From Saccharofermentanales bacterium (lineage in GTDB: Bacteria > Bacillota > Clostridia > Saccharofermentanales > DTU023): 64,000 nt of DNA. Shown here piece by piece: positions 7,037 through 53,346 of the stretch. The notes beneath the pieces were generated by a model. That model did not search any database. It was not told the DNA's origin and was given only the letters and a program-made list of their open reading frames with translations. The position numbers and the translations under genes were made by a program. Positions within the stretch are counted from its first letter, which is position 1; each line of letters opens with the position of its first letter. Where the stretch lies: NCBI GenBank assembly GCA_050945495.1, contig JBMNTA010000001.1, forward strand, positions 61,075 through 125,074. The letters run 5' to 3'.

Positions 7037-7086
7037 CAAAAAATAAAAGCGCTCGCATTTTCCTTTTGAAAAACGCATAGCGCTTC
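7037..7086 (-). terminator. Intrinsic terminator forming the expression platform of the lysine riboswitch
   Basis: Minus-strand RNA AAGCGCUAUGCGUUUUUC-AAAAG-GAAAAUGCGAGCGCUU followed by UUUAUUUUUU. It lies about 25 nt upstream of the kal RBS. Confidence 0.75.
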
Positions 7087-7089
7087 ATG

Positions 7090-7245
7090 CCAAGCATGAC
7101 AGTAAATCGTCCTTCGTCCGACCTACCAGAGATAACGCACGGGATCGCACGCTCCCCTTCGGCAACGGATACTTCAACGCCACCCCGATCCCGGGTCTCG
7201 TCGCGCCTACCCATCCGTCGCGCCTCTATCGTTGGATTGTACGCA
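7090..7245 (-). promoter_or_regulatory. Lysine riboswitch (L-box) aptamer
   Basis: Minus strand reads ...CCAACGAUAGAGGCGCGACGGAUGGGUAGGCGCG...GGGGUGGCGUUGAAGUAUCC...GCCGAAGGGGAGCGUGCG...CUCUGGUAGGUCGG...UUUACUGUCAUGCUUGG. It has the AGAGGCGC, GAAGGGGAGCG and CUGUCA core blocks. P1 pairing is CCAA..GAUAG with CUGUC..UUGG. Matched by eye to the lysC-type L-box. Confidence 0.8.
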
Positions 7246-43785: not shown

Positions 43786-44334
43786 ATGGCTTACAAAGAA
43801 ATCATCATCTCGGGATTCGGCGGACAAGGCGTCATGGCCATCGGCAAAACGCTCACCGAAGCGGGTATGGTGGAAGATATGAACGTCAGCTGGCTCCCGT
43901 CGTACGGTCCGGAAATGCGGGGCGGCACCGCGAACTGCAGCGTCGTCATCGCCGATTCGGAAATCATCTCCCCAATCGTCTTGGAACCGACGGAATTGAT
44001 CGCCATGAACGAGCCCTCGCTCGACAAATTTGAGCCGCACGTCAAAAAGGGCGGCACGATCTTTGTCAACAGCTCGATCGTCTCGCGCAAGATTCGACGC
44101 GAAGACGTCGACGCGGTCTATGTGCCGACGGCGGAAATCGCCACGGAATTGGGCAACATGCGCGTCGCCAACATGGTGATGCTCGGAGCCTTCATCCGCA
44201 AGACGCAACTTTTGAAGTTCGATACCATCGTTGAAATGCTGAAACGTATGTTTACCGGCCGCAAAGCCCACCTGGTCGGTCTGAACGAAGAAGCCCTGAA
44301 GCGCGGCGCCGCGTGCGCGTGCCTCGACGACTGA
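43786..44334 (+). CDS. 2-oxoacid:ferredoxin oxidoreductase gamma subunit
   Basis: 182 aa. IIISGFGGQGVMAIGK...SYGPEMRGGTANC. Confidence 0.88.
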   Translation: MAYKEIIISGFGGQGVMAIGKTLTEAGMVEDMNVSWLPSYGPEMRGGTANCSVVIADSEIISPIVLEPTELIAMNEPSLDKFEPHVKKGGTIFVNSSIVSRKIRREDVDAVYVPTAEIATELGNMRVANMVMLGAFIRKTQLLKFDTIVEMLKRMFTGRKAHLVGLNEEALKRGAACACLDD

Positions 44335-44417: not shown

Positions 44418-45491
44418 ATGGATATCAAAATAACCAAAACCGAACATCCGAAAGCGAAGCCGCAAAATGAAGCGAAGCTCGGATTCGGTAAAGTGTTCAC
44501 CGATCATATGTTTATGATCCATTACAACCCGGACGAAGGTTGGCACGACGCGCGCATCGTCCCGTACGGCAACATCGCGCTCGACCCCGCCTCCCCCGTC
44601 TTCCACTACGGTCAGGAAGTCTTTGAAGGCGCCAAGGCCTATCGCCTCGACAACGGCGAGATCGGCCTGTTCCGCCTCATGGACAACGCCCGCCGTTTAA
44701 ACCAAAGCGCCGACCGCACCTGCATGCCCGCGTTGGACGCCGAATTTCAATACGAAGCGATTTGCCGCTTGATCGACCTGGATCGCGACTGGGTTCCCAA
44801 GAACGAAGGCACGTCGCTCTACTTGCGTCCCACCATGATCGCGGACGGCAAGAGCCTCGGGGCGCACAGCGCCACCGAATTCATCTACTACGTCATCTGC
44901 GCGCCTTCGGGATCCTATTACCCGAACGGCATGGAGCCCGTTCGCATCCGCATCGAGTCGCATTACGTCCGCGCCGTCAAAGGCGGCATGGGCCGTGCGA
45001 AGACCGGCGGTAACTACGCGGCAAGCTTCAAGGCCACGAAAGAAGCCATGGATCAGGGCTACAACCAGGTCCTCTGGCTGGACGGCCGCGAGCAGAAATA
45101 CGTCGAAGAAGTCGGCGCGATGAACATGATGTTCGTGATCGACGGCAAAATCGTGACGGCCGAGTTGGGCGATACGATCCTGCCCGGCATCACGCGCGAT
45201 TCGGTCCTGACCCTCGCCAAATCCATGGGCTATGAGGTCGAAGAACGCAAGATCCCCGTCGTCGAGCTCTTCCAAGCCTACGACGAAGGCCGCTTGAACG
45301 AAGCGTTCGGCACCGGCACCGCCGCCGTCATTTCACCCGTCGGCGAACTGACGTGGGAAGACCGCACGATCATCATCAACAACAATGAAATCGGCCCCAT
45401 CGCCCAGAGAATGTACGACACCCTGACGGGCATTCAGTGGCAACGCCGCGAGGATCCGCACAACTGGACCTCGGTCGTCCCCCACTTCTAA
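44418..45491 (+). CDS. ilvE: Branched-chain amino acid aminotransferase
   Basis: 357 aa from ATG 44418 (MDIKITKTEHPKAKPQ...FTDHMFMIHY...VFHYGQEVFEGAKAYR). The layout is that of class IV aminotransferases. Confidence 0.9.
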   Translation: MDIKITKTEHPKAKPQNEAKLGFGKVFTDHMFMIHYNPDEGWHDARIVPYGNIALDPASPVFHYGQEVFEGAKAYRLDNGEIGLFRLMDNARRLNQSADRTCMPALDAEFQYEAICRLIDLDRDWVPKNEGTSLYLRPTMIADGKSLGAHSATEFIYYVICAPSGSYYPNGMEPVRIRIESHYVRAVKGGMGRAKTGGNYAASFKATKEAMDQGYNQVLWLDGREQKYVEEVGAMNMMFVIDGKIVTAELGDTILPGITRDSVLTLAKSMGYEVEERKIPVVELFQAYDEGRLNEAFGTGTAAVISPVGELTWEDRTIIINNNEIGPIAQRMYDTLTGIQWQRREDPHNWTSVVPHF

Positions 45492-45518
45492 GCCCGACAC
45501 TCCTTTATCTGAGACACG

Positions 45519-45547
45519 CAGCCCCGCCGAGCCGGCGGGGCTGTTTG
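45519..45547. terminator. Terminator after ilvE, shared with the convergent hxlR
   Basis: CAGCCCCGCCG-agc-CGGCGGGGCTG followed by TTTG. Confidence 0.75.
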
Positions 45548-45548
45548 A

Positions 45549-45935
45549 TTATGCGTGATAGTCCGTGTAGTCACATCGCTGACATTGTTTGAGACTTCGA
45601 TCCGTGACTTCATTGTGATAGGCGCCCGCCCATTTGCAAATGGTCTGCAAAATGGGCACCACGGACAACCCCTTGTCCGTCAGGCAATACTCCACCCGCG
45701 GAGGAATTTCATTGTAAGAGGTGCGATCGACGAGCCCGTCTCGGGCCAGTTCTTTCAGCGTGGAGGTCAAGACGGCATCCGTAATGTTGATCATTTCGCC
45801 GCGAAGCTCGCTGTAGCGCAACGTGCCCTTCTCCGATAACACACAGATGATGCGTGATTTCCATTTTCCCCCGAAAATTTGCAGGGCATACTCCAACGGA
45901 CACCGGATATCTTCTTCCATCTTTTTTTCGTACAT
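45549..45935 (-). CDS. HxlR family transcriptional regulator
   Basis: 128 aa. CPLEYALQIFGGKWKSRIICVL...LRYSELRGEM...ITDAVLTSTLKELARDGLV...PPRVEYCLTDKG. Confidence 0.9.
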   Translation of the reverse strand: MYEKKMEEDIRCPLEYALQIFGGKWKSRIICVLSEKGTLRYSELRGEMINITDAVLTSTLKELARDGLVDRTSYNEIPPRVEYCLTDKGLSVVPILQTICKWAGAYHNEVTDRSLKQCQRCDYTDYHA

Positions 45936-45997
45936 GATGACCTCCGTACGTTTATCTTAGTTGGTAGAAGCGATTTTAAAAAGTTACTATGAAAATT

Positions 45998-46010
45998 ATG
46001 AGTGACTCAT
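45998..46010. promoter_or_regulatory. Perfect palindrome ATGAGTGACTCAT in the hxlR divergent intergenic region (candidate operator)
   Basis: Seen directly. A second palindrome, GTTGATCAAC, lies at 46063-46072. Confidence 0.4.
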
Positions 46011-46105
46011 TCTTTTCTTAATATCTTACATTTCGAGCGCGCGACCTCTACACTAAAAATGCGTTGATCAACCGCACTCAATGATTGACAAGGAGGTCAC
46101 TTCAC

Positions 46106-46396
46106 ATGAACGTCAAAGCGTATTTGCAGGTCATCATGACCATTTCCGAAGAAAATCGTGCGAAAGCCGCCCAAGTTTACACGGATTACCGCCAACCCTT
46201 CCTCGATGACGTCGAGGGCGCGCTCACCAAAGAGCTGCTGGTGCGTGACGAGGATGTTCAGGTCATTCACGGGTTCGACAGCATGGAACACGCAGAAGCG
46301 TACCTTGAAACGCCGCTGTTCACCGAGAAAGTCGCCCCCGGACTGCAACCCTTGTGGGACAAAGATCCCGACATCCGTTTCTACGCGGTGCCTTAA
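46106..46396 (+). CDS. Small ferredoxin-like-fold protein (ABM/quinol monooxygenase-like), function unknown
   Basis: 96 aa from ATG 46106 (MNVKAYLQVIMTISEENRAKAAQVY...). AAGGAGG RBS. The length and the alternating pattern ending ...HAEAYLETPLF resemble the ABM domain. Divergent from hxlR. Confidence 0.6.
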   Translation: MNVKAYLQVIMTISEENRAKAAQVYTDYRQPFLDDVEGALTKELLVRDEDVQVIHGFDSMEHAEAYLETPLFTEKVAPGLQPLWDKDPDIRFYAVP

Positions 46397-46422
46397 TCGG
46401 ACGCAAGCGATCCCATGAAACT

Positions 46423-46451
46423 ACGGCCTCGCACACGCGAGGTCGTTTTTA
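46423..46451 (+). terminator. Intrinsic terminator after the 96-aa gene
   Basis: ACGGCCTCGC-acac-GCGAGGTCGT followed by TTTTT. Confidence 0.75.
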
Positions 46452-46627
46452 AGGCTTTTTTAAAACGGGAATTTGTATTTCTGTTACGTATCGTCTGATC
46501 CATGATTTAAAAGCCGTTTGTGGCTGAGATCAATCGCCGCTTGCACGGGGACCTTCGGAAGGTAGGCCATGACGCAAAAAGACATTCCTTATGGGTTAGC
46601 GCCGTGCCCAACATACTGATTACAACG

Positions 46628-46975
46628 CTAGAACGTCGCATCGTTCATATCGAGCGATTCGATGCCTTTTTGCAGCTCCGTCATCCGTTTTTCCAAAGCC
46701 AGAAAATCAATGAAACGGCTCTGTCGGTGGTATTCCTTCGTGCCGTGCATGATGAGCACGGTCGGGGCGGTGAGCACCATCATCTGCCCGCCCACGTCGG
46801 GGGCATGTTCGATGCGAATGTGAAACAACGGATAGTCGTATCGCTCGGCCAAGCGTTGCACCACAAGAAGGTCGTCGCCGCAGACGGGACACGTCGGACT
46901 TGAAAAATAGACGAGCGCGTACGGTGTGTCGGCCAGTCGATGCCGTAAGTCTTGAAAGCTTTGGATTTCGGTCAT
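46628..46975 (-). CDS. Thioredoxin-fold protein (CPVC active site)
   Basis: 115 aa from ATG 46975 (MTEIQSFQDLRHRLADTPYALVYFSSPTCPVCGDD...), 4 nt after the scfB stop. The tracked 196-aa extension overlaps scfB and is rejected. Confidence 0.75.
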   Translation of the reverse strand: MTEIQSFQDLRHRLADTPYALVYFSSPTCPVCGDDLLVVQRLAERYDYPLFHIRIEHAPDVGGQMMVLTAPTVLIMHGTKEYHRQSRFIDFLALEKRMTELQKGIESLDMNDATF

Positions 46976-46979
46976 CGCG

Positions 46980-48338
46980 TCAGATATCCAACAGAGCGCC
47001 GACCTTGGCGCGGAGCGCGCATTCGATGCGCTTTCGGAAGAGTTCGCAACTCGTCTCGTCGACGCTGTCGAGGCGCCCGTGGACATGGAATGCATTGGCG
47101 GCACACCCGCCGGAGCAGTAATACTTGGCCCAGCAGTCGTGACAGTCGTCCAACGAGAAAATGTTGCGTTTCGAAAATTGTTCGACGATGTCATCCCGCT
47201 CGAGCCCGGTCCACACATTGCCCATCTTGAATTCGGGGTGTTCCACCAATTGGTGGCACGGATAGATATCGCCGTTCGGGGTGACGGCGAGGTATTCGGT
47301 GCCGGATCCGCAGCCGGCCACCCGCTTGTAGATGCAGGGTCCGCCTTCCAAATTGATCATGAAATGATAGAAACGGAACGGGTGCCCCTCGCGCTCGGCC
47401 CGCACAATCTCACGGGCCAGTCGTTCATACCCCGTTTTGACGGCGGCGACGTCTTCGTCGGTTAAGGCATACGGCGAATCGGGCGCACAGACCACCGGCT
47501 CCATGCTGATCTCATCGAATCCGAGATCGTGGATATGGAGGATGTCTTCGACAAAGTCGGGGTTGGCATGCGTGAACGTGCCGCGCATGTAATACGTCCC
47601 GCGGTGACGGTTCTGTACGAGCTTTTGAAACTTCGGCACGATTTCGTCGTACGATCCGCGACCGGACAGATGCGTTCGGAAGCGGTCGTGAACCTCCGGC
47701 CGTCCGTCGAGGCTCAGGACGACGTTGTCCATTTCCCGATTGGCAAACGCAATGACATCGTCGTCGATCAGGACCCCGTTCGTCGTGAGCGTGAAGCGAA
47801 ACACTTTATCGTGGTCTTTTTCTTGCCGACGCGCATAGGCGACGGTGGCTTTCACCATGGGCCAATTGAGCAGCGGTTCACCGCCGAAAAAATCGACTTC
47901 GAGATGTTTCCGATCGCCGGAATGCTCGATCAGGAAGTCAATGGCGCGTTGCCCCGTCGCAAGCGACATCAGGGCCTGATCGCCTTTGTACGTGCCCTGC
48001 GCGGCAAAGCAATATTCACAGTTGAGGTTGCACGTGTGCGCGACGTTGAGGCAGAGCGCCTTGATGACGTCGCCTTGGGCCAGCTTGGATTGGGCCAGAG
48101 GACGAAAATCATGCTCGGAAAACAATTGCCCGGCATCGATCAGGGCGTTGACTTCATCCAAGGCGTCGCGGACGTCCGCTTCGGGATACGATCGGGTGAG
48201 CTCGTCCACGATCGCCCGGTCGGACATCGTCGTTTTGCGCGCGACGATCGCGTCGATGAGTTCGTCAACGACGTGAATGCATCCGCTGTCGACGTCCAGA
48301 ACAAAACGGACGCCGTCGAGTTCAAATCGGTGAATCAT
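46980..48338 (-). CDS. scfB: SCIFF peptide radical SAM/SPASM maturase (thioether cross-link forming)
   Basis: 452 aa from ATG 48338 (MIHRFELDGVRFVLDVDSGCIHVVDE). Radical SAM CNLNCEYC. C-terminal SPASM cysteines CGSG...YPCH...CHDCWAKYYCSGGCAANA. Immediately downstream of a SCIFF precursor. Confidence 0.9.
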   Translation of the reverse strand: MIHRFELDGVRFVLDVDSGCIHVVDELIDAIVARKTTMSDRAIVDELTRSYPEADVRDALDEVNALIDAGQLFSEHDFRPLAQSKLAQGDVIKALCLNVAHTCNLNCEYCFAAQGTYKGDQALMSLATGQRAIDFLIEHSGDRKHLEVDFFGGEPLLNWPMVKATVAYARRQEKDHDKVFRFTLTTNGVLIDDDVIAFANREMDNVVLSLDGRPEVHDRFRTHLSGRGSYDEIVPKFQKLVQNRHRGTYYMRGTFTHANPDFVEDILHIHDLGFDEISMEPVVCAPDSPYALTDEDVAAVKTGYERLAREIVRAEREGHPFRFYHFMINLEGGPCIYKRVAGCGSGTEYLAVTPNGDIYPCHQLVEHPEFKMGNVWTGLERDDIVEQFSKRNIFSLDDCHDCWAKYYCSGGCAANAFHVHGRLDSVDETSCELFRKRIECALRAKVGALLDI

Positions 48339-48351
48339 GGGCACAAAGAGA

Positions 48352-48373
48352 GAGGGACCGCAGAGGGTCCCTC
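48352..48373 (-). promoter_or_regulatory. Stem-loop between scfA and scfB (candidate partial terminator or processing site)
   Basis: Minus strand GAGGGACC-CUCUGC-GGUCCCUC followed by UCUCUUUGU, 10 nt before the scfB ATG. Confidence 0.55.
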
Positions 48374-48396
48374 CCATCGGTTGTCACACGTGGTCG

Positions 48397-48552
48397 TTAC
48401 GCGTCTTTGCGTTCGCACGCTTGGTTCACGACGCCACACGACGTCTTACACGCCGATTGGCACGAGGTTTGGCATTCGCCGCAGCCGTCATGCTCGATGT
48501 GATCGGTGAAATCACGCGTGGAAAGCGTAACAATGCGTTTTGATTTTTTCAT
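48397..48552 (-). CDS. scfA: Six-cysteine peptide SCIFF (ranthipeptide precursor)
   Basis: 51 aa: MKKSKRIVTLSTRDFTDHIEHDGCGECQTSCQSACKTSCGVVNQACERKDA. It carries the canonical GGCGECQTSCQSACKTSC core with six Cys. AAAGGG RBS. The tracked 70-aa ORF is over-extended. Confidence 0.92.
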   Translation of the reverse strand: MKKSKRIVTLSTRDFTDHIEHDGCGECQTSCQSACKTSCGVVNQACERKDA

Positions 48553-48586
48553 GGTCAAGACCCTTTCTTCATTCAAATACATGTCC

Positions 48587-48595
48587 ATCATACCA
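48587..48595 (-). promoter_or_regulatory. Extended -10 promoter element (TGGTATGAT) upstream of scfA
   Basis: Minus strand GGGGTGGTATGATGGAC, about 35 nt upstream of the scfA ATG. Confidence 0.5.
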
Positions 48596-48630
48596 CCCCG
48601 GCGGGCCATTGCGCGACCCGCGGGCGACCC

Positions 48631-49929
48631 TTATTTGCCGGAAATGACGATGCCGTCCAGGGCAACCCACGGCACGATGCCGGAGCCGTCGTTCACGGTC
48701 TCCTTCGAAATGGCGCGAATGTTCATCAGGGCGTCGGCGAAGTTGCCGGCGATCATCGTCTCGGAGAGCGCCTCCTTGACCTCACCGTTTTCGATGAGGA
48801 ACGCGTTTTTCGCCACCCCGGAAAAATCGCCGTTGCTGCTCGGCATGCCGCCGGAGAAACGAGCGATCAGGAGCCCGCGATCGATGCCTTGAATGATCGC
48901 TTCGACCGAGGTGTCGCCCGGTTCAACGACCACGTTGAACGACATGTTTTTCGCGCGTTCGTATCCCGTCTTGCGCGCGGCGTGATCGGAGATCGTGAAG
49001 CTCTTGAGCACGCCGTGTTCGATCGGGCTGAAATCTTCGGAAAGATAGCCTTCTTGCGAGTATCGATCCCCCAAGATGATGTCCGGATGATGCGGCGCGA
49101 GCGAGATCGTGAGCCGCGGATCGGCGACGCGTTCGCCGAGTCGATCGAGCCAAAGGCTCGTTTTGTTGAGGATCGATCCGTCCGCCGTGAAGAGGTCCAA
49201 GGCACTGCCGATGAAACCGCGCACGCAATCGGGCGTCATGAGTACCGTGCCTTCGAACTTGCCCGTCACGTGGTCGGTATGCACCTGATCCGAGACGAGC
49301 GCGAAGTCTTCGGCGATGGAGCCCAGTTCGATGAACGGCGTGTCCAACGAGGTAAAGAGCACGCCGTTGCCGAAAAAGGACGAGGCTTTGTCACTCTCCT
49401 GGGCATTGAACATGGTGCTGATCTCATAGGCGCCGCGTTGGGCCTTCAGGATGCTGCCGGTCGAAAACACGGCGGCGCTTTCTTTCACCGTGTGCGTGAC
49501 GATGACTTGCTCCAGATGGATCTTCGGGAATTGCGTCTTCACGTCGTCGAGGAAGCCTTCGAAGCGCTCGATGAGCTTCGCTTCGTCGCACGTGAGCGCA
49601 CCTTCCACGAAGGTATGCTCACCGACCGACGGCGCCAATTGCCACGCCTCGTCGGGATCGGCGGCTTCGGCCGATTGCAAACATTGGCGCGCGCCGTCAC
49701 GAATGGCATCTTCGGTGACGTTGTTCTGACTCAAGACGCCGCGACGTCCGTCGGCGATAGCCTGAAAACTCACATGGTCTTCGTACAGCGTCCGGTAGAG
49801 GGTGAAGTCGCCTTGTTCCACGTTGATTTCGCGAACGACGGTGCGTGAAACGGCGCACGAGGCCTGATCGGCACCCCCCGCCTTCAACGCATCCAATCCG
49901 AGGTTCGCTTTTTTGATCAATTGTTCCAT
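48631..49929 (-). CDS. pmbA: PmbA/TldE family protein (TldD partner)
   Basis: 432 aa. TldD/PmbA fold pattern without an HExxxH motif. C-terminal GGMPSSNGDFSGVAKNAFLIENGE. Directly downstream of tldD. Confidence 0.82.
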   Translation of the reverse strand: MEQLIKKANLGLDALKAGGADQASCAVSRTVVREINVEQGDFTLYRTLYEDHVSFQAIADGRRGVLSQNNVTEDAIRDGARQCLQSAEAADPDEAWQLAPSVGEHTFVEGALTCDEAKLIERFEGFLDDVKTQFPKIHLEQVIVTHTVKESAAVFSTGSILKAQRGAYEISTMFNAQESDKASSFFGNGVLFTSLDTPFIELGSIAEDFALVSDQVHTDHVTGKFEGTVLMTPDCVRGFIGSALDLFTADGSILNKTSLWLDRLGERVADPRLTISLAPHHPDIILGDRYSQEGYLSEDFSPIEHGVLKSFTISDHAARKTGYERAKNMSFNVVVEPGDTSVEAIIQGIDRGLLIARFSGGMPSSNGDFSGVAKNAFLIENGEVKEALSETMIAGNFADALMNIRAISKETVNDGSGIVPWVALDGIVISGK

Positions 49930-49944
49930 TGCGCAGCTCCTCTC

Positions 49945-51330
49945 TTACCTTCCGCCAACCGTCAGTTGACAGCGCACCGCGGGGCCGCCGAGCCCCACGG
50001 GCATGATTTGTTTTTTGCCGCAGAAGCCGGAACTCGCCCATTCGACGTCCGCCGACAACATGTCAACCGTCTTCAGCATATCGAAGGCGACGCCGGAGAT
50101 GGTCGTGTCGAAGACGGCCCGACCGAGTTTGCCGTTTTTGATTTCGTAGCCGACCGTGACGCCGAACATGAACTCGCCCGTCGTGTCGGCCTGGCCGTTG
50201 TTGGTGTCCATGAAGTAATAACCGTCGTCGATGGAGGCGATCATGTCCTCGATCGTGTCGTTGCCGGGGAGGATCGCGGTGTTGCGCATGCGGATCAACG
50301 GCTCGTCGGAAAAGAGCCAGGCGCGGGCGTTACCCTGCGGTCGGGTGCCGAAATGTTCGGCCGACTCCCGATTGTGCATGTAGCCTTTGAGCAAGCCGTC
50401 TTCAATCAAGACGGCGTCTTCGGCGACGACGCCTTCATCGTCCACGTAGACCGGCAGCGGCGCCGGCTTACCGAAGGCGGTGTGCGCATAGTCGACGAGG
50501 CTCACCATCTCGGAGGCGACCGGTTGGTCCATGAGATGCTGGGCGACGGAGCCCCCGAGCACCAAGTCGGCTTCGACCGTGTGACCGACGGCTTCGTGCG
50601 CGAGCATGCCGGCCAAGGTGCCGGACAAGATCACGGTCTTGAGCCCGGCTTCCGTGTAGACGGCCTCCCGCTTCTTCATCAAATGTTCGTATGTTTGATC
50701 CACCGCGGCGTGCGCGGCCTCGAGGTCCGTGAAGTTCTCGTCGAGTGTGCCGTATCCGCCGATGGGTCGGAAGACCTCGACCGGCGTCCCCTCCTTCGAC
50801 ATGGCCGTCAAGACGACGTAGATGTAGCTTCGTGGGATCACGACGTGCGCGTCGTATCCGTCGGAGGTCGCGATGACCTTTTCGACCGTATCGGACGTGG
50901 CCAGCACCACGCGGCTGATGAGCTCCGGACAGTGCTCCGTGATGTAGCGATCCACGGCGCGGCACGTTTCCACGTAAACGCGCTGTTCGACATCGTGGAA
51001 CGATTCGATCAGAGGACGCATTCCCGTCCCGGGCGCGGGCAACGGCGGTTGTTTCGACCGCGCATGGTTCGAAAGCACGGTGGCGTTCGACGTCGCTTCT
51101 TGCAAAACGCGTTCAATCGACGCGTCGGAAAAATCACCGATGGACGCAAAGCCGTACACGCCGTTGCGGCGTACGCGGGCGCTCACGCCGGCATGGTCCG
51201 TGCGCGTGTTGGCGGTCAACTCCCCGTTCAGCAGCGTGACGCGGCGCATGGCGTTGTGCTGGGCGCGCAACTCCGATTCGGCCCCCTCGGCGAAGTGCCG
51301 TTTGTGTTCAAAAATCGTTTCTTTTAACAT
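49945..51330 (-). CDS. tldD: TldD family metalloprotease
   Basis: 461 aa from ATG 51330 (MLKETIFEHKRHF...). AAAGGAG RBS. Zinc motif HEAVGHTVEAD. GNARA... and FMFGV blocks. Confidence 0.85.
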   Translation of the reverse strand: MLKETIFEHKRHFAEGAESELRAQHNAMRRVTLLNGELTANTRTDHAGVSARVRRNGVYGFASIGDFSDASIERVLQEATSNATVLSNHARSKQPPLPAPGTGMRPLIESFHDVEQRVYVETCRAVDRYITEHCPELISRVVLATSDTVEKVIATSDGYDAHVVIPRSYIYVVLTAMSKEGTPVEVFRPIGGYGTLDENFTDLEAAHAAVDQTYEHLMKKREAVYTEAGLKTVILSGTLAGMLAHEAVGHTVEADLVLGGSVAQHLMDQPVASEMVSLVDYAHTAFGKPAPLPVYVDDEGVVAEDAVLIEDGLLKGYMHNRESAEHFGTRPQGNARAWLFSDEPLIRMRNTAILPGNDTIEDMIASIDDGYYFMDTNNGQADTTGEFMFGVTVGYEIKNGKLGRAVFDTTISGVAFDMLKTVDMLSADVEWASSGFCGKKQIMPVGLGGPAVRCQLTVGGR

Positions 51331-51509
51331 GGCGCTCCTTTCCGTCTCTCCCACGAAAGACTCGCCGAACAGTATATCATGTTCGCGCGCGCGTTACTGA
51401 TTAAACAATTGGTTGACATGGTTTGTGCCCTGTCATTATCATGGGGACACGTCGGATCGTTCGACCCGTCCCCCACGGTTTCGCAACGGTCATCAAAGGA
51501 GATCATCGA

Positions 51510-52667
51510 ATGTCTAAACACACCATCCTCATCATTGGCAGCGGCATCGCGGGCGTATCCGCCGCGGAAGCTGCGCGCAAACAAAACGATGATTGCGAAA
51601 TCATCATGTTCACGGACGAGACGAACTTGCCGGTCCATCGGCCGAGTTTACCGCGTGTCGTCGTCCAACCCGACGACTTGAAACGCGTCTTTGTCCACGA
51701 TCAAGCGTGGTTCGACGAGCGTCGGATCGATGTGCGCTTGGACACGCCGGTCGCATCCGTCGACGCCGAAAAGAAAGTGATCCGACTCGAAGACGGCACG
51801 GAACATGCCTACGATAAATTAATCCTTGCGACCGGGAGCCGCAGTTTCGTGCCCCCAATCAAGGGCAGCGACATCGAAGGCGTCTTCACCCTCTGGACAT
51901 TCGAGGATGCGATGGCCATTTCCGATTACGCCAAAAAGGCCTCCTCCGCGGTCGTCATCGGCGGCGGACTGTTGGGCTTGGAAATCGCCCATGCGCTCAG
52001 TCAACGCAAATTGCACACCACCATTTTGGAGCGCGGCGACGCGTTGCTGAGCCGTCAATTGGATGAGCGCTCGAGCGCCATGTTCCTCGAACAGGTCGAA
52101 CGCGTCGGCGTTGAGGTCATGTTCAACGCCAACACAGAAGAAATCCTCGCCGACGAGGCGGGCAAGGTGAAGGGGCTACGACTCGACGACGGCCGCGTCA
52201 TCGACTGCGACCTCGTGATGATTTCGACCGGCGTCCGCGCCCGCGTCGAAGTCATGGAGGACGAACCGATCGAGATTGATCGCCGCTTTGTCGTCAACGA
52301 ACGGTTGGAGACGAATTTGCCCGATATCTATGCGGCCGGTGACTGCGCCGTGATGAACGGCCAGTGGTACGGCTTGTGGTCCGTTTCGACGCGCGAAGGC
52401 CGCGTCGCGGGCGCCAATGCCGCCGGCGGCGATGAGACGTGCGTCATTCCGCCGCCGCCCTACATCGTCAACACGATGGAGACGCGCATTGCGTCGGCGG
52501 GCGATGTCTCGCCGGACGACCCCGAGGTCTCGTCGCGCATTCACTTCGACGAAGCGCAGCTGACCTACGACCGCCGCAATTTCCTCGGCGATCAATTGAA
52601 GGGGTACATCTTGCTCGGCGACACGACCCCGTTCTCCATGTTGAGCCGCGAATTGCAACAGGGCTAA
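51510..52667 (+). CDS. NAD(P)/FAD-dependent oxidoreductase (rubredoxin-reductase/NROR-like)
   Basis: 385 aa from ATG 51510 (MSKHTILIIGSGIAGVSAAEAARK). Second fold AVVIGGGLLGLEIA. AAGDCA motif. AAAGGAG RBS. Confidence 0.82.
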   Translation: MSKHTILIIGSGIAGVSAAEAARKQNDDCEIIMFTDETNLPVHRPSLPRVVVQPDDLKRVFVHDQAWFDERRIDVRLDTPVASVDAEKKVIRLEDGTEHAYDKLILATGSRSFVPPIKGSDIEGVFTLWTFEDAMAISDYAKKASSAVVIGGGLLGLEIAHALSQRKLHTTILERGDALLSRQLDERSSAMFLEQVERVGVEVMFNANTEEILADEAGKVKGLRLDDGRVIDCDLVMISTGVRARVEVMEDEPIEIDRRFVVNERLETNLPDIYAAGDCAVMNGQWYGLWSVSTREGRVAGANAAGGDETCVIPPPPYIVNTMETRIASAGDVSPDDPEVSSRIHFDEAQLTYDRRNFLGDQLKGYILLGDTTPFSMLSRELQQG

Positions 52668-52686: not shown

Positions 52687-53346
52687 GTGCTTCCGATTCG
52701 CGACAGCCAACCGAGCCGACGGTTTCCGTTCGTCACGATCGTTTTGATCGTGGTGAACGTCTTGGTGTTTCTGCATCAGGTACGACTGCCCGCGCTGGCC
52801 TTGATGGCGTTTTATGAAAAGTACGCCTTCACGCCGGCCGGGCTGAGCGCATCCATCGAAGCGGGCCGCTTTTATCCCCCGGTCCTCACAAGCATGTTCT
52901 TGCATGGCGACTGGGGGCACCTTTTGGGCAACATGTGGAGCCTTTGGCTCTTCGGCGACAATGTCGAAGATTACCTGCGCCCGTTCCGATTCATTTTGTT
53001 TTATCTTTTGACGGGGCTGGCCGCCATCGCGGCCCACACGCTCGCATACCCCGGGAGCACGACCGTCACGCTCGGCGCCTCCGGCGCGATTGCGGGGGTG
53101 ATGGGCGCGTACCTGGTGCTGTATCCGCACGCGCGCATTCGAACCTTGATCCCCGTCCTCCCCTACATCATCGATGTCCCGGCGTTCGTGTACCTGATCA
53201 TCTGGTTTGTCCTGCAAGTCATCGGCGTCGCCTCGCGTCAAGCGGCCGGCATCGCTTGGTGGGCGCACATTGCGGGCTTTGCGGTGGGGCTGCTCTTGTG
53301 CGTCCGCGGACGCAACCGCCATCGCAGGCGCGCATCCCGCGCCTGA
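52687..53346 (+). CDS. Rhomboid family intramembrane serine protease
   Basis: 219 aa with a GTG start. FLHGDWGHLLGNM, GASGAIAGVMGAY (catalytic Ser) and AHIAGFAVG (catalytic His). Confidence 0.88.
   Translation: MLPIRDSQPSRRFPFVTIVLIVVNVLVFLHQVRLPALALMAFYEKYAFTPAGLSASIEAGRFYPPVLTSMFLHGDWGHLLGNMWSLWLFGDNVEDYLRPFRFILFYLLTGLAAIAAHTLAYPGSTTVTLGASGAIAGVMGAYLVLYPHARIRTLIPVLPYIIDVPAFVYLIIWFVLQVIGVASRQAAGIAWWAHIAGFAVGLLLCVRGRNRHRRRASRA

Follow-up and report, generated by a model that had tools for sequence, protein, structure and literature searches.

The window analysed here is a 64-kb stretch of a Saccharofermentanales bacterium genome, and the region of interest, 46628-51330, carries a two-gene SCIFF ranthipeptide system, scfA-scfB, with the genes of a TldD/PmbA-type protease on one side and a thioredoxin-family gene on the other. 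All five genes are co-oriented on the minus strand. Read along that strand, they are tldD (49945-51330), encoding the 461-aa catalytic subunit of an M103 (TldD/PmbA) zinc metalloprotease; pmbA, or tldE (48631-49929), encoding its non-catalytic partner subunit (432 aa); scfA (48397-48552), encoding a 51-aa SCIFF precursor with six cysteines and the core HDGCGECQTSCQSACKTSCGVVNQAC; scfB (46980-48338), encoding a radical SAM/SPASM thioether-forming SCIFF maturase (452 aa); and trx (46628-46975), encoding a 115-aa YdfQ-like thioredoxin-family protein with a CPVC motif. The intergenic gaps are 15 nt between tldD and pmbA, 78 nt between pmbA and scfA, 58 nt between scfA and scfB, and 4 nt between scfB and trx. 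The genes, coordinates, motifs and the 78- and 4-nt spacings given in a preliminary description of this locus agree with the sequence, the profile scores and the motifs. Its reading of the start of the ScfA core as 'GGCGEC(Q...)' is incorrect, and should be HDGCGECQTSCQSACKTSC, i.e. 'DGCGEC'. An identical ScfB is present in NCBI on a 174.5-kb contig of a metagenome-assembled genome (MAG) of a Saccharofermentanales bacterium (MGI6156954.1, 'thioether cross-link-forming SCIFF peptide maturase'), as is an identical Trx on the same contig (MGI6156953.1, 'thioredoxin family protein'). The core SCIFF system is thus already known and annotated in this MAG; the locus is a somewhat divergent member, and its third gene is unusual but unconserved.

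The assignment of the scfA-scfB pair is straightforward. ScfA (MKKSKRIVTLSTRDFTDHIEHDGCGECQTSCQSACKTSCGVVNQACERKDA) has cysteines at positions 24, 27, 31, 35, 39 and 46, preceded by 23 linear N-terminal residues, and scores 80 bits against TIGR03973 (cut-off 50) and 78.5 bits against PF13165 (cut-off 27). Six cysteines in a conserved region of about 45 residues, with a maturase gene within 500 bp, have been used to recognize SCIFF precursors (PMC5300114); both features are present here, with scfB 58 nt downstream. ScfB scores 670.6 bits against TIGR03974 (cut-off 425) and is not captured by the 'not_ScfB' exception model NF040492 (532.7 bits, under the cut-off of 855). Its Pfam matches are Radical_SAM, Fer4_12 and SPASM; the radical SAM motif CNLNCEYC (CxxxCxxC) is located at residue 103, the SPASM domain is recognized by both TIGR04085 (69 bits) and PF13186, and C-terminal cysteines occur at residues 335, 343, 361, 399, 402, 408, 412 and 431. 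The nearest ScfB relatives are merely 65 % identical. A longer scfB of 465 aa (JGI call, ATG at 48377) was rejected, as the family consensus and the NCBI call both begin at MIHRF.

TldD, 461 aa from its ATG and likewise 461 aa in relatives, matches all three PmbA_TldD Pfam domains (1st, 2nd and 3rd). HEAVGH is found at residue 245 and GFCGK at residue 435, and both align to residues of Escherichia coli TldD in a full-length match (PDB 5nj5; E 3e-39). PmbA scores 159 bits against PmbA_TldD_3rd and has neither HExxxH nor GFCGK, as expected of an inactive partner. Three domains, an HExxxH motif and a cysteine ligand in TldD only, and an adjacent paralogue without these motifs are what characterizes M103 TldD/TldE proteases, and all are seen here. 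TldD nonetheless falls under the NCBIfam equivalog cut-offs, with 147.9 versus 513 bits for NF008006 (E. coli) and 230.7 versus 635 bits for NF040952 (archaeal), and by these profiles it is a family member, not a named equivalog of the E. coli or archaeal TldD. With the window TldD as query, metagenomes gave five loci of 54-68 % identity, in all of which PmbA comes after TldD; TldD was always paired with PmbA in related loci. Neither scfA nor scfB was found near TldD in the three metagenomic loci with usable flanks, a small sample.

The trx product has CPVC at residues 29-32 and a proline (P71) at the conserved cis-Pro position. An AlphaFold2 model (mean predicted local distance difference test 92.8) places CPVC at the N-terminus of helix 2, and the top Foldseek matches of the model are thioredoxins (template modelling score 0.79-0.87, root mean square deviation about 1.5 Å). 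The nearest solved structure by sequence is PDB 4EUY, an uncharacterized protein (E 2.6e-9). The protein scores 17.9 bits against Pfam PF00085, under the gathering threshold of 23.5; TraF, itself a thioredoxin-like family, is the sole Pfam model to exceed its cut-off (25.2 versus 23), and one homologue (P0122) passes PF00085 with 25.2 bits. A word-indexed search yielded two matches, a copy from the same species and one 64 %-identical protein, and an exhaustive HMMER search recovered about 250 cluster representatives of 100-125 aa. The aligned top homologues share Cx(V)C, P71, E81, R84 and RFIDF, with C29, C32 and P71 invariant. In profile searches homologues are named 'thioredoxin family protein' or 'Thioredoxin-like protein YdfQ'; the named members are mostly from Bacilli (Virgibacillus, Sporosarcina, Oceanobacillus, Enterococcus and Facklamia), and the family also occurs in Desulfosporosinus, Thermoanaerobacterium and Clostridium. 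Two other interpretations of this gene were set aside. A 196-aa open reading frame (ORF) from 47218 that includes trx is out of frame with scfB where the two overlap, and the NCBI call, like the homologues, starts at the ATG of the 115-aa gene. A match to MauD (E 0.0098) is weak and confined to the surroundings of CxxC, and is retained as an analogy only.

Two further genes accompany trx, an hxlR-family regulator (45549-45935, minus strand; Pfam HxlR, 97 bits) and a 96-aa ABM-like ORF (46106-46396, plus strand; weak Pfam ABM match, 17.6 bits). The segment that contains all three (45493-46979) has a G+C content of 0.514 versus 0.593 for the window, and a third-position G+C content (GC3) of 0.64-0.69 versus 0.73-0.82 in the backbone genes described below; the lower values are consistent with a later acquisition. 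The closest homologue of Trx (64 %; L085:436-789) lies, by eye, on a visibly AT-rich contig, with no scfB upstream and an amidohydrolase-like gene downstream. So striking a likeness of the two proteins across such different base compositions would fit a horizontal transfer of the small trx gene. None of the four homologue neighbourhoods read, that of the closest included, contained a radical SAM or SCIFF gene.

Eight lineages, 61-65 % identical in ScfB, were examined one at a time (L081 and L083 counted as one lineage, L086 and L087 as one), which with the window gives nine Saccharofermentanales-like lineages. A backbone is common to the nine: a rhomboid gene and a Pyr_redox_2 oxidoreductase gene, divergently oriented, a variable slot, scfA and scfB, a second variable slot, a convergent ilvE, POR subunits, a CbiA-like gene, ack and pta. 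In the window the tldD side of this backbone comprises a Pyr_redox_2/Rubredoxin_C oxidoreductase (51504-52667, plus strand) and a rhomboid protease (52687-53346, plus strand), which keep the same relative order in L084, L086, L088 and L098-L101. The scfB side comprises a class IV aminotransferase, ilvE (44418-45491, plus strand), convergent with scfB, and a POR gamma subunit (43786-44334, plus strand); the arrangement of POR and ilvE is common to all the relatives.

The slot upstream of scfA varies by whole genes. It holds a 238-aa gene, TldD, PmbA and glycerate kinase in L098 and L101; the same with DUF308 ahead of glycerate kinase in L099; and TldD, PmbA, DUF308 and an opposite-strand TauE in L081/L083. 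TldD and PmbA are missing from the slot in L084, which has the 238-aa gene and glycerate kinase, and in L086/87, L088 and L100, which have a 238- to 273-aa gene, DUF308 and glycerate kinase. In the window the slot contains TldD and PmbA only. The pair is therefore present in the slot in 5/9 lineages and missing from it in 4/9, and it adjoins scfA in the window only, the other four carriers having one or two unrelated genes in between. Among the relatives that carry the pair, identity to the window proteins is 68-79 % for TldD and 54-56 % for PmbA. The 238-aa gene, which has no Pfam match, is located between the Pyr_redox_2 gene and the TldD/glycerate kinase slot in most relatives (L084:5741-6457, L088:5246-5962, L098:1962-2678, L099:1418-2134 and L101:2118-2834) and is absent from the window. 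ScfA leaders compared by eye in five of the nine lineages revealed no systematic difference between loci with and without TldD/PmbA nearby.

The slot downstream of scfB is equally variable. It is empty in four lineages (L081-L083, L084, L100 and L101) and in three others a PLD-family gene is present, at a gap of 13 nt in L098 and L099 and with the called genes overlapping in L088; L086/L087 end too soon after scfB for it to be read. The combination of trx, the ABM-like ORF and hxlR fills this slot in the window only, and none of the eight related lineages has it here.

The expression signals of the pair are more constant than its surroundings. An extended -10 promoter-like box, GTGGTATGAT (48596-48587, minus strand; TGGTATGAT at 48595-48587), is located about 35 nt 5′ of the scfA ATG. 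The pattern GTGNTATRRT occurs twice in the window versus 0.54 matches expected. The box is found in all nine lineages (window, L081, L084, L086, L088 and L098-L101), 35-45 nt 5′ of the scfA ATG, as aaGTGCTATAGTa in the eight relatives and as GTGGTATGAT in the window. It is kept despite diverged flanking sequence, and its position is the same with glycerate kinase, pmbA or a TauE on the opposite strand as the upstream gene. No -35 match is evident near it in the nine lineages. Between scfA and scfB a GC-rich hairpin (48375-48350, minus strand; 10 bp, of which 7 are G-C; -25.2 kcal/mol, z -2.5) is followed by the T-run TCTTTGTG, and comparable GC-rich hairpins with a T-run are present in the scfA-scfB spacers of L084, L086 and L088. 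The hairpin buries the sole Shine-Dalgarno (SD)-like sequence of the window spacer, GGGAGGG (spacer 48338-48396, minus strand), and within 15 nt of the scfB ATG (48338) there is no SD. Terminator prediction and folding energy suggest that the hairpin is probably a partial terminator or attenuator, setting the ratio of precursor to maturase. The scfB-trx junction reads TGA CGCG ATG, and the trx ATG is without a convincing SD; with a 4-nt gap and no good SD, co-transcription of trx with scfB, and probably translational coupling, are likely.

To place the locus in a wider context, one genome per GTDB species was scanned by ScfB alignment, and 80 loci (L001-L080; 54-60 % ScfB identity) were listed, from Oscillospiraceae, Lachnospiraceae, Acutalibacteraceae and others. 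Their flanks total 1.11 Mb, with at least 3 kb available upstream in 57 and downstream in 63. By tblastn with the window proteins, scfA was detected in 75/80 listed loci; TldD and PmbA were each detected in 0/80 within flanks of up to 10 kb, and the window Trx in 0/80. A six-frame search of 91 scfB loci with Trx-family hidden Markov models gave two weak matches (about 30 bits), both on the opposite strand and neither directly downstream of scfB. One of these (L009:8683-9135, minus strand; 30 bits), approximately 500 nt 5′ of scfB, is the sole other Trx-like ORF close to scfAB among the 91 loci. In a separate locus (L054:9252-9515), a single ORF contains two SCIFF units in tandem and in frame (CGVANQPCEATSRIVTLNTRNLTNCEGGCGECQTS), and six other loci fall in the same cluster.

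Conserved neighbours of scfAB were also sought by clustering all flanking ORFs. An OKR_DC_1 gene, encoding an Orn/Lys/Arg-decarboxylase-family pyridoxal phosphate (PLP) enzyme of about 450 aa, is present in 64/80 listed loci (for example L006:4279-5640 and L007:11380-12759). Of the 75 loci whose downstream sequence is long enough, 56 have it directly 3′ of scfB in the same orientation (median gap 12 nt), and in 7 listed loci it is just 5′ of scfA; the window does not contain it. In Clostridia of gut and rumen OKR_DC_1 is the neighbour of scfAB that is really conserved, which may reflect either function or a conserved housekeeping string.

Taken together, these data favour the view, held with good though not full confidence, that scfA-scfB is an autonomous, standard SCIFF unit whose neighbours at this locus have been inherited or inserted and are not dedicated parts of it. 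In such a scheme transcription of scfA would start at a conserved extended -10 promoter of its own, the hairpin and T-run that follow it would probably let the precursor message exceed that of the maturase, and ScfB, judging from its family membership, would install one or more thioether cross-links, Cys-to-Thr or of another non-alpha kind, in the cysteine-rich ScfA core. TldD/PmbA would be a general-purpose heterodimeric metalloprotease encoded in an inherited Saccharofermentanales gene string: rhomboid, oxidoreductase, 238-aa gene, TldD, PmbA, DUF308, glycerate kinase, scfA, scfB, (PLD), ilvE, POR, ack and pta. The abutment of pmbA on scfA in the window would then be a consequence of loss there of the 238-aa gene, DUF308 and glycerate kinase. 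The YdfQ-like trx appears to have arrived with the small lower-GC insertion (trx, ABM-like ORF and hxlR) in the variable slot after scfB, and is now likely co-transcribed with scfB, probably with translational coupling. The transcription unit would accordingly be scfA-scfB, extended by trx in this organism.

The preliminary description had read both neighbours as potential partners of the SCIFF system, with the caveat that scfA has its own promoter and that the adjacency may be coincidental. The caveat is the part that has held, with the box in 9/9 lineages whatever lies upstream. The link between TldD/PmbA and ScfA drawn from adjacency finds no support in 0/80 listed loci, nor in a slot occupied in 5/9 lineages with intervening genes in all but the window; that between Trx and SCIFF or its maturase finds none in the presence of trx after scfB in this organism only, in 0/80 listed loci, or in four homologue contexts without scfB. 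The gene-neighbourhood census that had been proposed as a refutation test thus shows no enrichment of TldD, PmbA or Trx beside scfAB outside the order; both neighbours are unconserved there, and both slots are variable within it. On the evidence of gene order, the presence of TldD/PmbA and Trx beside scfAB is a lineage-specific accident and not a conserved biosynthetic cassette.

Some features of the locus weigh against this reading, and in two alternatives one neighbour is a SCIFF partner. The first alternative is that the YdfQ-like Trx was recruited as a SCIFF accessory in this lineage and is made in step with ScfB by translational coupling. It could keep the six ScfA cysteines, or the cluster-ligating cysteines of ScfB, reduced for thioether formation, or it could resolve wrong disulfides in the product. 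A 4-nt gap to the scfB stop without a good or independent SD reads as the signature of real co-expression with scfB, and co-expressed genes are often functionally related. The thioredoxin fold of the protein is genuine, the helix 2 N-terminus carrying CPVC and the cis-Pro position being conserved, the supposed substrate is cysteine-rich, and the weak local likeness is to MauD, a thioredoxin-like maturation factor for a cysteine-rich subunit. However, trx follows scfB in this organism only, among 91 scfB loci, and the 4-nt coupling is by itself no functional evidence, because a PLP decarboxylase or PLD gene fills the same slot equally tightly elsewhere. The gene shares its lower-GC inserted segment with an hxlR regulator, the four homologue contexts are without radical SAM or SCIFF genes, and a strict anaerobe has a reducing cytoplasm to begin with. 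Furthermore, the family is widespread in Bacilli, whereas SCIFF is confined to Clostridia (PMC8326336). Recruitment of Trx to SCIFF maturation is therefore judged unlikely.

The second alternative makes TldD/PmbA, at least in Saccharofermentanales, the leader peptidase that SCIFF has been missing, with gene proximity reflecting partnership. After cross-linking by ScfB, the leader would be threaded into the TldD/PmbA chamber and shortened in the manner of a 'pencil sharpener' until a thioether ring blocks further progress. The general activity is well documented: with low sequence specificity, TldD/E trims the leaders of modified peptides (PMC5810440; PMC10885120), among them those of microcin B17, klebsazolicin and McC-Yps (PMC10885120), and the 'pencil sharpener', which is sequence-tolerant, requires some 15 linear residues at the N-terminus and goes no further than the modification (PMC10885120; primary work PMC5810440). 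TldD-type proteases are also found inside pearlin and biphenomycin-like clusters (PMC10885120; PMC12257519). SCIFF loci encode no protease of their own, the 23 linear residues ahead of the first ScfA cysteine would fit TldD/E leader trimming, and the window TldD has intact HExxxH and cysteine ligand motifs with PmbA as the expected inactive partner. In addition, the pair is co-oriented with and upstream of scfAB, within about 2 kb, in 5/9 lineages, a proximity that could reflect weak selection for closeness and not descent alone; and the 78-nt spacer between pmbA and scfA has no predicted terminator-like site, which makes read-through from tldD-pmbA into scfA possible.

Against the protease alternative, TldD/PmbA is found in none of the 80 listed scfB loci of other Clostridia and is missing from the slot in four of nine close relatives, and in four of the five carriers glycerate kinase, DUF308 or an opposite-strand TauE intervenes. 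scfA has its own conserved promoter, and metagenomic TldD relatives are without scfAB nearby. A search of the available literature turned up no paper naming both SCIFF and TldD, and a 2023 review notes that TldD/E occurs in approximately 60 % of bacterial genomes, is usually encoded outside clusters for ribosomally made peptides with post-translational modifications (RiPPs), and serves the cell in other ways too (PMC10885120). Trimming of ScfA by TldD/PmbA could still occur as a housekeeping activity, which adjacency neither predicts nor needs and for which the locus gives no specific support. A dedicated TldD/PmbA-SCIFF partnership is therefore rated quite improbable. A combination of both alternatives, in which TldD/PmbA was ancestrally placed in the scfAB string of Saccharofermentanales as the SCIFF leader peptidase and the window is the most compact, five-gene cassette, with an acquired Trx keeping the six cysteines reduced for thioether formation, is highly doubtful.

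SCIFF peptides are widespread in Clostridia, contain beta or gamma thioethers and have been linked to quorum sensing, and their active form is unresolved (PMC8326336). Leader removal and physiological role are still open, and a conserved protease or redox partner beside scfAB would be a useful lead. The census indicates that the present locus gives no such lead; inherited synteny, loss of genes and a small insertion account for its neighbours. Since the adjacency is uninformative, TldD/PmbA is worth testing on SCIFF only as a promiscuous trimmer of modified peptides. Possibly more useful to those working on SCIFF are the conserved scfA-proximal promoter box in this order and the very frequent PLP-decarboxylase gene directly 3′ of scfB in gut Clostridia. 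Elsewhere in the window, a lysine riboswitch (RF00168) is located at 7070-7236 on the minus strand (52.1 bits, E 9e-11).

The scfA-scfB pair closely resembles known SCIFF systems (TIGR03973 and TIGR03974; CteA/CteB of Clostridium thermocellum and Tte1186a/Tte1186). As in these, the precursor has six cysteines in its core, here GCGECQTSCQSACKTSCGV, the maturase gene is immediately 3′ of the precursor gene, and both proteins lie far above the curated cut-offs; the two-gene unit is without a protease or transporter of its own, as in 87 other loci examined. Unlike usual SCIFF loci, the window has no downstream PLP-decarboxylase gene, and a thioredoxin-family gene is coupled to scfB instead.

The protease genes are similar to E. 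coli TldD/TldE (PmbA), the enzyme that trims the microcin B17 leader, in that two adjacent paralogues are present with HExxxH and the GxCGK cysteine in TldD only, although the window TldD is under the corresponding equivalog cut-off. As for the E. coli pair, nothing ties the window pair genetically to a RiPP cluster. A TldD-type HExxxH gene beside a precursor and a radical or oxidative maturase is also seen in the pearlin/ammosamide and PbsP/BpmI biphenomycin-like clusters (PMC10885120; PMC12257519). PbsP has been shown to be active, and the activity of the ammosamide homologue is unconfirmed (PMC10885120; PMC12257519). However, those proteases sit inside their clusters, whereas the co-localization in the window is unconserved, and PbsP acts alone without a TldE partner (PMC12257519), whereas the window has a classical TldD/PmbA pair. 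Finally, the window Trx belongs with the YdfQ-like proteins of Bacillota (PDB 4EUY), a class of about 105-120 aa with Cx(V)C, invariant P71/E81/R84 and RFIDF; it has CPVC in place of the commoner CSVC of that family, and is the sole member seen in an scfAB operon.

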